Assembly: GCF_963921235.1 (NCBI RefSeq)
Contig: NC_086097.1
Span: 91,018,001-91,082,000, forward strand
Origin: Mobula hypostoma
Lineage: Eukaryota
Direction: 5' to 3'
Length of the DNA stretch: 64,000 bases
Notes under the pieces: generated by a model
Database searches by the model: none
Told to the model about the DNA's origin: nothing
Seen by the model: the letters and a program-made list of their open reading frames with translations, nothing else
Part shown: positions 7,465 to 60,514 of the stretch, piece by piece
Numbering within the stretch: the first letter of the stretch is position 1
Layout of the letters: each line of letters opens with the position of its first letter
Program-made: the position numbers and the translations under genes

Positions 7465-8537
7465 ACTGGATCAGAAAATTTGCGGATGACACCAAGATTA
7501 GGGGTGTAGTGGACAGTGGGGAAGGCTATTATGACCTGTAGAGGGATCTGAATCAGCTGGAAAAATGGGCTGACAATAGCAGATGAAATTTAATACAGAC
7601 AAGTGCGAGATAGGACCAACCAGGGTAGGTCTTACACAGTGAATAGTAGGGCACTGAGGATTGCGGTAGAACAGAGGAATCTGGGAATACAGGTATGTAA
7701 TTCATTGAAAGTGGTATCACAGGTAGATAGGGTTGTAAAGAAAGCTTTTGGCACATTGGCCTTCATAAATCAATGTATTGTGTATAGCAACATACATCAA
7801 AGTTGCTGGTGAACGCAGCAGGCCAGGCAGCATCTCGGCCTGAAACGTCGACTGCGCCTCTTCCTATAGATGCTGCCTGGCCTGCTGCGTTCACCAGCAA
7901 CTTTGATGTATGTTGCTTGAATTTCCAGCATCTGCAGAATTCCTGTTGTTTGCGTTTATTGTGTATAGCTGAAGTTGTACAAGACGTTAGTGAGGCCTAA
8001 TTTGGAGTATTGTGTGCAGTTCTGGTCACCTACCTACAAGAATGATGTAGACAAATTTGAAAGAGTGCAGAGAAAATTTACAAGGATGTTGCTGGGTTTG
8101 GAGGACATGAGTTATAAGGAAAGATTGAATAGATTAGGACCGTAGAATGTAGAAGATTGAGAGAAGATTTGATAGAGGTATACAAAATTATGAGGGTTAT
8201 AGATAGGGTAAATGCAAGCAGGCTTTTCCCACTGCATTAGGTGGGACTACAACCAGAGGCCATGGCATAAGGGTGAAAGGTGAGATATTTAAGGAGAACA
8301 TGAGGGGAAACTTCTTCACTCCAGGGGTCATGAGAGCGTGGAATGAGCTGCCAGCACAAGTGGTCCATGCAAGCTCAATTTCACCATTTAAGAGAAGTTT
8401 GGATAGGTACATGGATAGTAGGGAAATGGAGGGCTGTGGTTTTGGTGCAGGTCAATGGGAGTACATGGTTTAAATGGTTTCGGCATAGACTAAATGGGCA
8501 AGGGCCTGTTCTGTGCTGTACTTCTCTACGACTCTAT
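7465..8537 (+). mobile_element. CR1 LINE 3' fragment, interrupted by a Penelope-derived insert
   Basis: [11 protein letters not shown] and RGNFFT...AWNELP motifs in frameshifted ORFs. Confidence 0.9.
7789..7956 (+). mobile_element. Penelope-like pLTR mini-insert with a perfect 49-bp inverted repeat and 13-bp TSD
   Basis: IR at 7787-7835 and 7868-7916. TSD TATTGTGTATAGC at 7776-7788 and 7957-7969. Nearly identical to the Penelope end at 13424-13540. Confidence 0.9.
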
Positions 8538-12836: not shown

Positions 12837-13519
12837 ATATTTATTCAGGACTCCTGCAATAAACACCAGTCATTCAACTGCTGGTGCATTGTAAGCATAG
12901 GCAGACGTGGAAAGACACCAGACCAGAAACTTTGAAGTAAGTTACTTGGCTGCAAAAAAAATATTGGGGAACCTGAGGCAGTGGAAGGCATCGCAGAATT
13001 CCAAATCTTCCTTTTGCAGCCAAGTATTAAGTTTGCCTGATGATATCTTGCAACATTGACATCTTAAGTGTGTTGCTGCTGCTGACCTGCCAATGATATA
13101 GGAAGCTGAGATGCTGAGAGAAAACGTCCAGCTGTGTGAAGGGTGAGAGACCTGCGATCCAGCCCTGCTTGTGTAAAGAAAATGACACACGCGACGTGCC
13201 AGAATTCTCTACATTTTCCTCAGCAAAGTGCAATTGGAAAGATGATCCCTGTAGCAGAGTTACTATCATTTCTCGATTGGCTTGGATCTTCCAGAGATTA
13301 AATCTAATTTACAACGTGCAACTCAGAGGGAAAAGTTATAAGGCATTAAAAAATATGCTATGTCTTTTGTTACATTTTATTAGTTATAAGATGTTGGAAA
13401 TTAAATATAAAAAGGCTGCTTCAAACAACAGGAATTCTGCAGATGCTGGAAATTCAAGCAACACACATCAAAGTTGCTGGTGAACGCAGCAGGCCAGGCA
13501 GCATCTCTAGGAAGAGGTA

Positions 13520-13557
13520 CAATCGACGTTTCAGGCCGAGACCCTTCGTCAGGACTA
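13520..13557 (-). ncRNA. Minimal type I hammerhead ribozyme motif
   Basis: Minus strand reads TAGTC-CTGACGA-AGGGTCTCGGCCT-GAAA-CG-TC-GATTG: intact core, stem I, stem II, palindromic ACGT mini-stem III and a GUC cleavage triplet. Confidence 0.85.
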
Positions 13558-13858
13558 ACTGAAGGAAGAGTGAGAAAGGGATTTGAAAGTTGGAGGGGGA
13601 GGGGGAGATCCAAAATGATAGGAGAAGATAGGAGAAGACAGGAGGGGGAGGGATAGAGCCAAGAGCTGGACAGGTGATAGGCAAAAGGGATATGAGAGGA
13701 TCATGGGACAGGAGGTCCGGGAAGAAAGACAAGGGGGGGGGACCCAGAGGATGGGCAAGAGGTATATTCAGAGGGACAGAGGGAGAAAAAGGAGAGTGAG
13801 AGAAAGAATGTGTGTATAAAAATAAGTAACAAATGGGGTACGAGGGGGAGGTGGGGCA

Positions 13859-14185
13859 TTAGCGGAAGTTAGAGAAGTCGATGTTCATGCCATCAGGTTG
13901 GAGGCTACCCAGACGGAATATAAGGTGTTGTTTCTCCAACCTGAGTGTGGCTTCATCTTTACAGTAGAGGAGGCCGTGGATAGACTTGTCAGAATGGGAA
14001 TGAGATATGGAATTAAAATGTGTGGCCACTGGGAGATCCTGCTTTCTCTGGCGGACAGAGCGTAGGTGTTCAGCAAAGCGGTCTCCCAGTCTGCGTCGGG
14101 TCTCGCCAATATATAAAAGGCCACATCGGGAGCACCGGACGCAGTATATCACCCCAGCCGACTCACAGGTGAAGTGTTGCCTCAC
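13859..14185 (-). pseudogene. GIY-YIG endonuclease domain of a Penelope-like element (fragment)
   Basis: VIY-x-CxxC-x-YIG-x-R-x-EH motif; the upstream RT is missing. Confidence 0.9.
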
Positions 14186-14844
14186 CTGGAAGGATTGTTT
14201 GGGGCCCTGAATGGTGGTAAGGGAGGAAGTGTAAGGGCATGTGTAGCACTTGTTCCGCTTACACGGATAAGTGCCAGGAGGGAGATCAGTGGGGAGGGAT
14301 GGTGGGGACGAATGAGCAAGGGAGTCGCGTAGGGAGCGATCCCTGCGGAATGCTGAGGTGGGGGGAGGGAAAGATGTGCTTAGTGGTGGGATCCCGTTGG
14401 AGGTGGCTTAGTGGTGGGATCCCGTTGGATCCCGTTGGCTGCTTCATGTGGAATTGACTTGAATATACACACATTCAAGCCGTTTGTCTTACCCTATTTT
14501 CGTTTTGTGTCTGCCTGTTGGGCAGTTAGAGTATAATGTAAGTTCGGGGTACCACGTCCAAACAAGCACAACCTGCATTTATAAGGTATAACCTATGTGC
14601 TAAAACAATAAAAAGACACTTCATTGGCTTTTGGTCAGATTAAATATGGCATCAAACCACATTGAGACTAATGATTAAAAGCTCTATAGAATGGTTTGGT
14701 TTTATGGAACAGCTGATAGTAGGAAATACTGCAAGTGCAAGATAAAGTAATGGATACGTTTGGAGAGGAAATTCAGGAGTTAGGGGCCTATGTGGATGAA
14801 GGCACAGCTGCCAAGAGGGGCAAAAAAAAACAAGGATATGAATC

Positions 14845-15448: not shown

Positions 15449-18400
15449 TACATAGAAACATAGAAAACCTACAGCACAATACAGGCCCTTCAACCCACAA
15501 TGCTGTGCCGAACATGTACTTACTTTAGAAATTACCTAGGGTTACCCATAGCCCTCTATTTTTCTAAACACCATGTATCTATCCTGGAGCATCTTAAAAG
15601 ACCCTATCTTATCTGCCTCCACTACCATTGCCAGCAGTCCATTCCATGCACTCACCACTCTCTGTAAAAAAAACTTACCCCTGACATCTCCTCTGTACCT
15701 ACTTCCAAGTACCTTAAAACTGTGCCCTCTCATGTTAGCCATTTCAGTCCTGAGAAAAAGCCTCTAACTATGCACGCGATCAATGCCTCTCATCATCTTA
15801 TACACCTCTATCAGGTCACCACTCATCCTCCGCCACTCCAAGGAGAAAAGGCCGAGTTCATTCAACCTATTCTAATAAGGCATGCTCCCCGATCCAAGCA
15901 GCATCCCTGTAAATCTCCTCTGCACCCTTTCTATAGTTTCCACATCCTTCCTGTAGTGAGGTGGCCAGAACTGAGCACAGTACTTCAAGTGGGGTCTGAC
16001 CAGGATCTTATATAGCTGTAACATTACCTCTCAGCTCTTGAACTCAATTCCACGATTGATGAAAACCTTCTCATCCATCCACTTCCTCATCCAGGTCATT
16101 TATGAAAATTATGAAGAGAAGGGGTCCTAGAACAGATCCTTGAGGCACACCACTAGTCATGGACCTCCATGCAGAATATGACCCGTCCACAACCAATCTT
16201 TGCCTTCTGTGAGCAAGCCAATTCCAGATCAACAAAGCAAGGACCTCTTGGATCCCATGCCTCCTTACTTTCTCAATAAGCCTTGCATGGGGTAACTTAT
16301 CAAATGCCTTGCTGAAATCCATATATACTACATCTACTGCTCTACCTTCATCAATGTGTTTAGTCACATCCTCAAAAAATTCAATCAGACTTGTAAGGCA
16401 CAACCTGCCTTTCACAAAGCCATGCTGATTATTCGTAATCATATTATGCCTCTCCAAATGTTCATAAATCCTGCCTCTCAGGATCTTTTCCATCAACTTA
16501 CCAACCACTGAAATAAGACTCACTCGTCTATAATTTCCTGGGCTATTTCTACTCCCTTTCTTGATTAAAGGAACAACATCTGCAACCCTCCAATCCTCTG
16601 GAAAATCTCCCATCCTCACTGATGATGCGAAGATCATTGCCAGAGGCTCAGCAATCTCCTCCCTCGCCAAGCACAGTAGACTGGGGTACATCTTGTCTGG
16701 TCGCGGAGACTCAGCCAACTTGATGCTTTCCAAAAGCTCCAGCACATCCTCTTTCTTAACGTTTATATGCTCAAGCTTTTCAATCTGCTTTAAATCATCC
16801 CTACAATCACCAAGATCCCTTTCCGCAGTAAATACTGAAGCAAAGTATTCATTAAGTATTTCTGCTATCTTGTCCGGTCCCATACAGACTTTTCCACTGT
16901 CACACCTGTATGTCCTATTCTCTCATGTCTTATCCTCTTGCTCTTCACATACTTGTAGAATGCCTTGAGGTTTTTCTTAGTCCTGCTTGCCAAGGCCTTC
17001 TCATGGCCCCTTCTGGCTCTCCTAATTTCATACTTAAGTTTCTTCCTGCTAGCCTTCCTTATAATCTTCTGGATCTCTATCATTACCTAGTTTTTTGAAC
17101 CTTTCGTAAGCTCTTCTTTCCTTCTTGACTAGATTTCAACAGCCTTTGTACACCACGGTTCCTGTACCCTACCATCCTTTCCCTGTCTCATTGGAATGTG
17201 CTACACAAATATCCCCTGAACATTTGCTACTTTTCTGCCATACATTTCCCTGAGAACATCTGTTCCCAATTTATGCTTCCAAGTTCCTACCTGATAGCTT
17301 CATATTTCCCCTCACTCCAATTGAATGCTTTCCTAACTTGTCTGTTCCTATTCCTCTCCAATGCTATGGTAAAGGAGATAGAATTGTGATCACTATCTCC
17401 AAAATGCTCTCCCACTGAGAGACCTGACAACTGACCAGGTTTATTTCCCGAAACCAGATCAAGAACAGCCTCTCCTCTTGTAGGCTTATCTACATATTGT
17501 GTCAGGAAACCTTCCTGAACACAACTAACAAACTCCACCCAATGTAAACCCCTTGCTCTAGGGAGTGCCAATCAATATTTGGGAAGTTAAAATCTCCCAC
17601 CACAACAGTCCCATTATTATTACACCTTTGCAGAATCTGTCTCCCTATCTGCTCCTCAATGTCCCTGTTGCTATTGGGTGGTCTATAAAAAACACCCAGT
17701 AGAGTTATTGACCCCTTCCTGTTCCTAACGTCCACCCACAGAGACTCAGTAGACAATCCCTTCATGACTTCCTCCTCTTCTGCAACCGTGACACTATCTC
17801 TGATCAGCAGTGCCATACCCCCACCTCTTTTCCCCACCCCCCTGTCCTTTCTGAAGCATCTAAAGCCTGGCACACTAAGTAACCACTCCTGCCTCTGAGC
17901 AATCCTAGTCTCCGTAATGGCCAAAACATCATAGCTCCAAGTGCTGATCCACGCTCTAAGCTCATCCGCTTTGTTCATGATGCTTCTTGCATTAAAATAG
18001 ACATATCTCAAACCATTGGTCTGAGCACATCCCTTCTCCATCACCTGCCTATCCTCCCTCCCAAGCTTTCTCTATTTGTGAGCAAAAAGCCCCTTCCTCC
18101 TTATCTTCAGTTCAGTTCCCACCCCCCACCAATTCTCGTTTAAACTCTCCTCAATAGCCTTAGCAAACTTCCCTTCCAGGATATTGGTCCCCCACGGATG
18201 CAAGTGCAACCCGTTCTTTTTGCAGAGGTCATGCCTGCCCCAAAAGAGGTCCCAGTGGTGCAGAAATCTGAATCCCTGCCCCCTGCTCCAATCCCTCAGC
18301 CACACATTTACCCTCCACCTCACTCTATTCCTATACTCACTGTCGCATGGCACAGGCAGTAATCCCAAGATTACTACCTTTGAGGTCCTGCTTCTCAATT

Positions 18401-18683
18401 TCCTTCCTAACTCACTGTGGTCTGTTTTCAGGACCTCCTCCCGTTTCCTAACTATGTCATTGGTACCAATATGTACCACGACTTCTGGCTGTTCACCTTC
18501 CCACTTTAGGATATCGCAGATGCAATCAGAAACATCCCGGATCCTGGCACCTGGGAGGCAAACAACCGTCCATGTTTCTTTCCTGCGTCCACAGAATCAC
18601 CTGTCTGACCCCCTAACTATAGAGTCCCCTATTATTGCTTCCATCTTCTTCCTTTCCTTACCCTTCTGAGCCACAGAGGGATA
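15449..18683 (-). mobile_element. Long CR1 LINE: ORF1 SGNH esterase, APE endonuclease and RT, disrupted
   Basis: 18072..18479 VHIGTND...GLHL (esterase); 17502..18044 YFNARS, AITET, YRPP, VGDFN (APE); 16071..16883 [21 protein letters not shown] (RT). Internal deletion near 16070, (TAGAAACA)n tail and possible TSD AGGGAGA. Confidence 0.95.
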
Positions 18684-43920: not shown

Positions 43921-44560
43921 AACGCTCTGTCCACCAGAGAAAGCAGGATCTCCCAGTGGCCACACATTTTAATTCCACATCCCATTCCCATTCTGATATG
44001 TCTATCCACGGCCTCCTCTACTGTAAAGATGAAGCCACACTCAGGCTGGAGGAACAACACCTTATATTCCGTCTGGGTAGCCTCCAACCTGACGGCATGA
44101 ACATTGACCTCTCAAACTTCCGCTAATGCCCCACCTCCCCCTCATACACCATCCATTATTTATTTATATACACACATTCTTTCTCCCTCTCTCCTTTTTC
44201 TCCCTCTGTCCCTCTCACTATACCCCTTGCCCATCCTCTGGGTTTTTCCCCCCTCCCCCTTTTCCTTCTCCCTAGGCCTCCTGTCCCATGATCCTCTCAT
44301 ATCCCTATTGCCAATCAACTGTCCAGCTCCTGGCTCCATCCCTCCCCCTCCTGTCTTCTCCTATCATTTTGGATCTCCCCCTCCCCCTCCCACTTTCAAA
44401 TCTCTTACTAGCTGTTCTTTCAGTTAGTCCTGACGAAGGGTCTCAGCCCGAAATATCGACTCTACCTCTTCCTAGAGATGCTGCCTGGCCTGCTGAGTTT
44501 ACCAGCAACTTTGATGTGTGCCGCTTGAAATTCCAGCATCTGCAGAGTTCCTCGTGTTTG
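43921..44560 (+). mobile_element. Penelope-like element 3' end (end of GIY-YIG plus pLTR)
   Basis: Closely matches the reverse complement of 13424-14065. TSD CACTTCTGTCC at 43910-43920 and 44561-44571. Confidence 0.92.
44425..44461 (+). ncRNA. Minimal type I hammerhead ribozyme motif (second copy)
   Basis: TAGTC-CTGACGA-A-GGG-TCTCAG-CCC-GAAA-TA-TC-GACT; core intact, AUC triplet. Confidence 0.75.
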
Positions 44561-44660: not shown

Positions 44661-44919
44661 AACACACACAAAATGCTGGAGGAACTGATTCCTCCCCCTC
44701 CAAGTTTCACCTATCGCCAGGCATTTCTCTCTCCCTCCCCCCACCTTTCAAATCTGCTCCTCAGCTTTTTTTCTACAGTCCTGCCAAAGGGTTTCGGCCA
44801 GAAACGTCGACTGTACTTTTTTTTATAGAGGCTGCCTGGCCGGCCTGCTGAGTTCCTCCAGCATTTTGTGCATGTTGCTTGGATTTCCAGCGTCTGCAGA
44901 TTTTCTCTTGTTTGTGACC
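44661..44919 (+). mobile_element. Penelope pLTR mini-insert with a short 5' inversion and decayed hammerhead
   Basis: TSD TGTCCAAAT at 44652-44660 and 44920-44928. CACAAAATGCTGGAGGAACT is inverted relative to 44850-44870. Confidence 0.85.
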
Positions 44920-51817: not shown

Positions 51818-51970
51818 ACAAACAGGAGAAAATCTGCAGATGCTGGAAGTCCAAGCAACACACACTAAGTGCTGGAGGGTTCTGCTGAAGGATCTCAGTC
51901 AAAACGTCAACTGTACTCTTTTCCATAACTGCTGCCTGGCCTGCTGAGTTCCTCCAGCATTGTGTGTTGC
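51818..51970. mobile_element. Penelope pLTR mini-insert with inverted ends inside an old CR1 tail (51660-52370)
   Basis: GCAACACACACTAAGTGCTGGAGG is inverted relative to CCTCCAGCATTGTGTGTTGC. Decayed core CTGCTGAAGG...AAAACGTC. Possible TSD CTATGC[T/C]CTCT. Confidence 0.75.
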
Positions 51971-59312: not shown

Positions 59313-60512
59313 TCACAAACAAGAGAAAATCTGCAGATGTTGGATATCCATGCAATGCATACAAAATGCTGGAGGGACTTAGTAGGTCAAGCAGCATCTA
59401 TGGAAAGAGTACACGCGACGTTTTGGGCCAAGACCCTTCAGCAGAACTGGAAAGAAGATGAGGATTCAGCGTTAGAAAGTGGGGGGAGGGGAAGAAGAAA
59501 CACAAGGTGATAGGTGAAACCAGGATGGGTGGGAAGGGTGAAGTAAAGAGCTGGGGAAGTTGATTGGTGAAAGAGGTACAAGGCTGGAGAAAGGGGAACC
59601 TGATAGGAGAGGGCAGAATTCCATGGAAGAAAGAAAAGGGGGAGGAGCACCAGAGGGAGGTGAAGGGCAGGTAAGGAGATGAGGTGAGAGAGGGAGAAGG
59701 GAATGGAGAATAACGAAGGAGAGGAGGGTTGGGGGCATTACCGGAAGTTCAAAAACCTGAGTGTGGCCTCATCATGACGGCAGAGGAGACCACATTGGAA
59801 TGGGAATGGGAAGTGGAATTAAAATGGCTGGCCATTGGGAGATCCTGCATTTTTAGGCGGACAGAGCGTAGGTGCTCGGTGAAGCAGTCTCCCAATCTGT
59901 GTCGGGTATCACCAATATATAGGAGGCCACACCAGGAGCACAGATACAGTAGATGACCCCAACAGACTCACAGGTGAAGTGTCACCTCACCTGGAAGGAT
60001 TGTTTGGGGCCCTGAATGATAGTGAGGGGGGAGGTGTGGGAGCAGATGTAGCGCTTGTTCTGCTTGCAAGGATAAGCGCCAGGAGGGAGATCAATGGGAA
60101 GGGACGAGAGGACAAGGGAGTCACATAGTCACTAAGATCTCCTTAGTCCTGGAATGAAAGGCCTCATCCTGTGAGCAGATGCTGCAGAGACGGAGGAATT
60201 GAGAGAAGGGGATGTTGTTTTTTACAAGTAACAGGGCGGGAAGACGTATAGTCCAAGTAGCTGTGAGAGTCACTGGGTTTATGAAAGGTATCAATAGATA
60301 TCAGAGATGGAGACAGAGAGATTGAGAAAGGGGAGAAGGGTGTTTGAAATGGACCAGGTAAATTTTAGGGTAGAGTGGAAGGTGGAGGCTAAGATGACAA
60401 AGTCGATGAGCTCAGCATGGGTGCAGGAAGCAGCACCAATGCAGTTGTTGATGTAGCATTGGAAAAGTTGGGGAGTGCTATCAGTGTAGGCTTGGAACAT
60501 AGACTGTTCCAC
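59313..60512 (-). mobile_element. Older Penelope-like element (RT C-terminal part, GIY-YIG and pLTR)
   Basis: ORF 60291..60512 reads EQSMFQAY...FQCYINN (decayed RYIDD)...LKFTWSIS...LPFL. 59740-60120 aligns to 13860-14330. Decayed hammerhead at ~59415-59450. Confidence 0.88.
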
Positions 60513-60514
60513 AG

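Follow-up and report, generated by a model that had tools for sequence, protein, structure and literature searches.

A hammerhead motif in the tail of a truncated Penelope-like element

The 64-kb window, which is the whole stretch of Mobula DNA that was analysed, carries on its minus strand the 3' part of a Penelope-like element (PLE). A hammerhead motif lies in the tail of this copy, and further pieces of the same family are found elsewhere in the window. The features are as follows.

13422..14407, minus strand: 5'-truncated PLE copy that retains ~985 nt from the 3' end of a ~3.5-kb unit, from alignment to 29 other genomic copies and to the full-length copy L044
13859..14407, minus strand: C-terminal ORF remnant with a CKRNKCYTC cysteine linker and a GIY-YIG endonuclease domain (182-aa open frame, PF01541)
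13558..13858, minus strand: 3' untranslated stretch from the stop codon to the hammerhead, read from the sequence
13520..13557, minus strand: minimal type I hammerhead motif, from a descriptor match and the feature list of minimal PLE hammerheads
13457..13478, minus strand: stem-loop AGCAAC/GUUGCU, present in the MFE and centroid structures
13422..13456, minus strand: optional 'tail' extension of ~35 nt, the longer 3'-end class, from a 3'-end comparison of copies
43924..44529, plus strand: second 5'-truncated copy of the same family, from comparison with the family
7788..7923 (7788-7836 minus, 7833-7923 plus): head-to-head pair of very short tail fragments, from family comparison

The original prediction had placed the motif in the same sense as, and downstream of, a GIY-YIG ORF, and this arrangement was found: the ORF at 13859..14407 (minus strand) lies upstream of the hammerhead, which follows after 301 nt and is itself located ~100 nt before the 3' end of the PLE copy. 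The copy aligned to positions 2389-3339 of L044 at 94% identity, and its GIY-YIG domain scored 22.3 bits with Pfam PF01541 (E 1.6e-4; curated cut-off 22.6). Helix I is immediately preceded by a polypyrimidine run and TTCAGTT, with which the untranslated stretch between ORF and motif ends. Downstream of the motif, the shorter 3'-end class of the genomic copies ends in or just past the 3' arm of the stem-loop.

In the second copy the hammerhead occupies 44424-44463 (plus strand) and has C11.1 and AUAU in place of ACGU, and both tail fragments at 7788..7923 are without a complete core. Since no promoter region of its own was identifiable for the window copy and no second same-strand copy with a core, a possible dimer partner, was found within the window, the copy is most likely inert and probably a relic.

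Older relatives of the same PLE, including tail pieces, were detected at 44688-44863 (plus), 51879-51959 (plus) and 59754-60513 (minus), with 72-82% identity to the young family. Several PLE lineages in the genome share the hammerhead and a GATGCTGCCTG...CTGCTG tail. The PLE copy is adjoined by an unrelated non-LTR retrotransposon remnant (16071-18596, minus strand), the frames of which encode a GDSL-lipase/OSK-like domain, an AP-type endonuclease and RVT_1.

Anatomy and detection of the motif

Read directly, the minus strand from 13557 to 13520 is UAGUCCUGACGAAGGGUCUCGGCCUGAAACGUCGAUUG, in agreement with the letters given in the original prediction, and is segmented as UAGUC-CUGACGA-A-GGGU(CUCG)GCCU-GAAA-CG-UC^GAUUG. 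In hammerhead numbering its parts, all on the minus strand, are the following.

UAGUC, 2.5-2.1: 5' strand of helix I
13552-13546: core box 1, C3-A9, CUGACGA, intact
13545: extra base between 9 and 10.1, A
GGGU/GCCU: helix II of 4 bp, closing a CUCG loop
13532-13529: core box 2, G12-A14, GAA(A), intact
ACGU, A15.1 C15.2 G16.2 U16.1: helix III, loop-less, with C15.2-G16.2 at 13528-13527
C17, then GAUUG, 1.1-1.5: 3' strand of helix I
13524..13525: self-cleavage site predicted by the numbering only, 3' of C17 (13525) and 5' of G1.1 (13524)

All 11 invariant core positions are present in the window motif, together with A15.1/U16.1, GUC and helices I and II of 5 and 4 bp; the N-U-H cleavage triplet with A15.1-U16.1 appears as A15.1 ... 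G-U-C17. Thus both core boxes, stems I and II, the GUC and the ACGU that takes the place of stem III are as had been described. Because there is no loop between A15.1 and U16.1, A15.1 can pair only with U16.1 of a second copy. Loops for tertiary contacts are absent from the motif. Helix I of the window copy (UAGUC/GAUUG) consists of three Watson-Crick and two G.U pairs. That there are two G.U pairs is due to a C-to-U change at 13522 which is private to this copy: nearly all others have GACUG, and with it a helix I of four Watson-Crick pairs and one G.U pair.

For the minimal hammerheads of metazoan PLEs, Cervera & De la Pena (2014, PMC4209133) list three traits beyond their search descriptor: an extra base between 9 and 10.1, a palindromic 15.2-16.2 and a conserved G10.1-C11.1 pair. 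The first two are found here as the A after A9 and as C-G at 15.2-16.2. The motif departs from the third, as the window has G10.1.U11.1 (or A-U in another register). U11.1 is shared by the two copies with the longest ORFs (L044 and L045) and by most copies. Position 11.1, when C, lies within a CpG, so that the U may have been derived by deamination in the master lineage.

A strict descriptor, CTGANGA-N(8-20)-GAAACGTC, gave a single match in the window, at 13525..13552 (minus strand), and none in 100 dinucleotide shuffles. This result agrees with the proposal of a type I minimal hammerhead as described for PLEs, intact in sequence, and with the suggestion that a descriptor would detect it. The companion suggestion, that Infernal with the Rfam hammerhead models would do so, was not borne out. 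Hammerhead models gave no match at gathering score in a scan of the whole window, and no hammerhead family was among the three matches to 13300-13800 at E<=10. A motif that lacks helix III would be expected to escape these models; the outcome nevertheless counts as a failed check. The three weak matches in that segment (PrrB/RsmZ, snoR117 and CRISPR-DR56) were dismissed as chance.

A large and young PLE family

Exact patterns were searched in 3.48 Gb of genome. The 33-nt core had 36,355 exact matches, a version of the core in which N7, 11.1 and one loop base could vary had 49,196, and a 28-nt stretch of the tail had 62,315, while each of the reversed controls had none. The motif belongs to a very large young PLE family. 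C11.1 was present in 17 of the first 100 places listed of the 49,196 free-position matches and made up 19-47% of contig depth in four runs.

With a 160-aa piece of the reverse transcriptase, 39,786 first-look candidates were obtained in the genome. The identity of the 150 that were scored ranged from 90 to 100% and was mostly 93-96%, and their open frames reached 1,058 aa. In the longest frame (L044, 1,058 aa from stop to stop) a reverse transcriptase is followed by GIY-YIG in a single ORF, both domains scoring just under the curated cut-off (RVT_1: E 2e-6, 28.1 bits against 29.6; GIY-YIG: E 0.0099). Judged by this domain order, the host element is a PLE with the canonical C-terminal EN+ layout. 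The CKRNKCYTC that precedes GIY-YIG fits the CX2-5CxxC linker form between reverse transcriptase and endonuclease that Craig et al. (2021) attribute to Neptune.

Full-length units open with GCGTTTAAATTCAC..., have their first ATG ~50 nt in and close with ...CCTGTTGTTT. In five of the seven full-length copies examined (L184, L191, L195, L045 and L194) a direct partial copy of the tail, a pseudo-LTR, lies immediately upstream; counted from the cut site, these five partial copies start at -108, -36, -422, -21 and +68. An inverted partial copy flanks other full-length copies. The 3' ends fall into two classes ~35 nt apart, which correspond to 13421-13425 and 13449-13467 in window coordinates. PLEs have been described as heavily 5'-truncated, with pseudo-LTRs in direct or inverted orientation, a tail of 30-40 bp and a hammerhead close to the 3' end (Craig et al., 2021), and the anatomy of the family matches this description. 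The original prediction had assigned the motif to a Penelope terminal repeat. This term is right for the family, as the region forms a pseudo-LTR in full-length tandem copies elsewhere, and is wrong for the window copy, which is a solo 3' fragment.

Contigs in two runs switch at 13467 to other sequence (...CTGCTGAGTTCCTCCAGCATTTTG, element strand). It therefore appears that another abundant repeat family has the final ~45 nt of the tail (13422-13467, minus strand) in common with this one.

Conservation of the motif block

An older lineage of the element was recognised by the marker GAAACGTCGACTGTTTATTC, which had 1,200 exact matches, 30 of which were sampled. Across the 37-nt block (2.4 to 1.5), N7 was the one position at which the majority base of these copies was not that of the young family; as the last 20 nt of the block were fixed by the search pattern, only its 5' two-thirds are a free test of conservation. 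N7 was the least fixed core position in the older lineage (T in 16 copies, A in 6, G in 5 and C in 1), and the sequences that flank the block on both sides differ between the two lineages. On this comparison the motif block is kept between two lineages.

The motif was also present in contigs of four runs under four organism codes, where only 13522 and 13533 (11.1), and in one run 13532, varied at 10% or more. Covariation was not counted as support, since the copies are too uniform and the changes at paired positions are one-sided (U/C at 2.5, C/U at 1.3 and U/C at 11.1). AUAU as helix III is a single case, that of the second copy in the window. A decayed core, UUGCUGA, was noticed in a diverged PLE relative at L044 1-420 (minus strand), one uninformative copy.

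These data bear on the explanation that the match is a chance or decayed look-alike without meaning at the level of the family. It could appeal to the state of the window copy, which is a dead fragment with a private mutation in helix I, and to the covariance models that return no match. Against it stand the absence of matches in 100 shuffles, the 36,355 exact copies as opposed to none for the reversed control, the conservation of the block across lineages despite diverged flanks, and the position of the motif in a PLE tail, where such motifs are described. We consider this explanation highly improbable.

Predicted folding

Thermodynamic support for a hammerhead or double-hammerhead fold was found neither in the 38-mer, nor in the dimer, nor in the 139-nt tail. 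The MFE structure of the isolated 38-mer is an inactive rod in which G5-G8 pairs with C15.2-C17 (-8.7 kcal/mol, compared with -4.7 for the hammerhead pairing). The double-hammerhead dimer reached -6.9 as against -25.7 for the best duplex, and the 139-nt tail folds no better than its shuffles (z -0.19). The rod follows from the sequence: with C at N7, G5-A6-C7-G8 is fully complementary to C15.2-G16.2-U16.1-C17 (13520-13552, minus strand), so that the core of a lone motif is predicted to be trapped by the motif itself. The U that predominates at N7 in the older lineage would allow the same pairing through a wobble.

Comparison with known hammerhead-bearing elements

Hammerheads of PLEs have been in print since 2014, and the motif is an ordinary member of this known kind. 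No published description of this particular PLE family was found in the literature search, the supplementary alignments of PMC4209133 and of Lunse et al. lying outside it. With the minimal hammerheads as presented in PMC4209133, the Mobula motif shares the type I topology, a helix III without loop, the extra base 9/10.1, the palindromic 15.2-16.2 and a short helix I (4-5 bp). It likewise sits in the region that forms pseudo-LTRs and occurs mostly as a solo motif within truncated copies, some of them closely paired on opposite strands. Its helix II, by contrast, has 4 bp and a tetraloop, whereas that of the schistosome families in the same paper has 7-8 bp, and 11.1 is mostly U (G.U) in the Mobula family. 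The 36,355 exact cores exceed several-fold the ~4,000 motifs of coelacanth and ~9,000 of Xenopus given there, in a comparison across different counting methods, and the Mobula copies are nearly uniform while those in PMC4209133 are highly variable. The same source reports that minimal hammerheads cut poorly in vitro even as dimers.

A second point of reference is the hammerhead of the Anolis Poseidon element PAc (PMC11167929, Mob DNA 2024), which according to that account cleaves in vitro only with the element protein, as controlled by C3/G8 mutants and their rescue. The account also states that no RNA-seq ends lie at its site and that it is not needed for insertion in vitro; reverse transcription starts internally at two sites downstream of the hammerhead, which define the 'tail'. 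Both are vertebrate PLE hammerheads without a stable helix III, some tens of nucleotides upstream of two reverse-transcription start sites. In the Mobula family the distance from the cut site to the 3' end is ~65 nt for the shorter class, which ends at the stem-loop, and ~102 nt for the longer, a layout that parallels the PAc tail. The two motifs differ in that the PAc motif overlaps the start codon, whereas the Mobula motif is ~150 nt before the ATG of the next unit and 301 nt after the stop codon. Further, the CKRNKCYTC linker fits the CX2-5CxxC of Neptune and not the Poseidon clade to which PAc belongs. Cleavage, protein dependence and the C3/G8 controls are experimental results for PAc, whereas cleavage of the Mobula motif is predicted from its sequence.

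The small PLE hammerhead variants of Lunse, Weinberg & Breaker, here compared through the summary in PMC6765202, resemble the Mobula motif in their very short palindromic helix III, which is stated to force dimers for cleavage. Metazoan non-LTR retrozymes form tandem arrays and are thought to spread via circular RNA (Li, Clavereau & Pollet, 2026 preprint; Cervera & De la Pena, 2020). Like these, the Mobula family has hammerhead sequences related to PLE pseudo-LTRs and short non-coding copies that far outnumber coding ones. Unlike the arrays of retrozymes, its short copies are dispersed tail fragments, single or arranged head-to-head, that have target-site duplications, and tandem arrays of short copies were not seen in the sampled loci.

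Proposed mechanism and the 5' ends of genomic copies

Taken together, we put at about three in four the probability that a sequence-intact minimal type I hammerhead lies in the 3' tail of a 5'-truncated PLE and likely cuts after C17 only when a second copy pairs with its ACGU or the element protein assists its folding. In the proposed mechanism, which extends to this family what the papers cited above consider for such motifs, a monomer would be unable to form helix III and its ACGU palindrome would pair with that of a second copy; alternatively, the element protein would assist folding. The cut after C17, between 13525 and 13524 (minus strand), would occur in multi-copy transcripts and would, if anything, remove the head of the template or, at the 3' copy, its priming tail. 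Catalysis, the need for a dimer or a protein and any role in the life cycle are inferred for the family by analogy with the elements discussed above, and the RNA processing by self-cleavage that the original prediction proposed for it stays putative.

The genomic copies were examined for a footprint of cleavage. The first 100 places with the 28-nt tail word were sampled (L046-L075 and L106-L175), a choice that is blind to the presence of the hammerhead, and the 5' end of each copy was mapped relative to the predicted cut site.

<= -380: 16 copies of 100
-379..-101: 23 copies of 100
-100..-61: 7 copies of 100
-60..-39: 12 copies of 100
-38..-28: 20 copies of 100
-27..-1: 13 copies of 100
0..+3: 2 copies of 100
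+4..+24: 7 copies of 100

No excess of 5' ends was detected at G1.1 or the cut, where the two ends at 0..+3 are no more than a uniform spread would give. The ends instead piled up at the front edge of the motif: the 11-nt interval -38..-28 held 20 of the 100, ~5x the density of the other positions in -100..+24, and one further copy (L057) was placed there by eye. In window coordinates this edge is at ~13552-13562 (minus strand), directly downstream of the polypyrimidine run that ends in TTCAGTT. The pile-up may stem from a transcript start, from processing or from a stop in copying. In every sampled copy that reaches the motif, the motif was still joined to the tail, so that the templates that were inserted carried an uncut hammerhead. 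These ends argue that the inserted RNAs contained an uncleaved motif, and, judged by them, insertion does not proceed through cleavage in this family.

Among the 11 front-edge copies without an inverted partner, five (L150, L147, L140, L151 and L163) have target-site duplications that abut the junction, which identifies these as true insertion ends and not as chimeras with host exons. An origin by splicing, with host exons joined to the tail through a 3' splice site at this point, was rejected for the copies checked, as all upstream flanks differ and target-site duplications abut the junction.

A different explanation is that the element RNA retains the conserved block chiefly for a role other than cleavage, either as a structured 5' end of the template or as a binding or folding module near the start sites of reverse transcription, and that self-cleavage is rare or a side reaction in vivo. 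The front-edge ends (20 of 100 copies within 11 nt), the abutting duplications in 5 of 11 copies and the one of five upstream pseudo-LTRs that starts at -36 are consistent with it, as are the mere two copies that start at the cut and the greater stability of the rod over the hammerhead fold. It also accords with reports that the ribozyme is dispensable for insertion in vitro (PMC11167929) and that PLE clades without canonical hammerheads still proliferate (Craig et al., 2021). However, the positions kept between the lineages are exactly those of the catalytic core and the free one is N7, a pattern expected of a hammerhead and not of a generic hairpin, and cleavage of a homologous PLE motif has been shown with core-mutant controls (PMC11167929). 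We therefore regard a mainly non-cleaving role as unlikely and prefer the reading of a hammerhead that cuts with the help of a second copy or of the protein.

More tentatively, and with considerable doubt, the hammerhead may be the 5'-terminal module of the RNA that is actually copied. Transcripts or processing would then begin 1-8 nt before helix I, reverse transcription would start internally in the tail, and cleavage would be a brake or switch and not a maturation step. The polypyrimidine-TTCAGTT junction, at which they would begin, resembles an initiator. If this were true, every pseudo-LTR would be a self-contained template of ~100-135 nt, tens of thousands of ribozyme-headed mini-copies would be explained, and cleavage would take off the capped head of the template or its priming tail.

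On its own the motif matters little. The family to which it belongs is possibly an active vertebrate PLE and, being young and nearly uniform, with tens of thousands of copies and intact frames of >1,000 aa, offers a convenient natural data set on the purpose of the ribozyme. The 5' ends of its copies serve as a genomic read-out in which the inserted templates appear uncut and often begin at the front edge of the ribozyme; this bears on whether PLE hammerheads process a transposition intermediate at all.

One front-edge copy, L151 (C1:3927546-3928373), continues beyond the point at which copies usually end and takes in ~12 nt from the start of the next unit (GCGTTTAAATTC), with its target-site duplication following only then. 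This indicates that its template was a tandem, read-through or circular RNA.

Of the sampled copies, 61 of 100 end within -100..+24 of the cut, and 32 of these 61 have a head-to-head inverted partner. Head-to-head pairs with their junction in or beside the hammerhead were seen for many copies, for example L062/L063, L164/L165 and L169/L170, or the places 109234/109304, 2546806/2546841 and 4659452/4659497 on C1. Some of these inverted junctions lie 2-40 nt from both cores and give rise to near-perfect palindromes.
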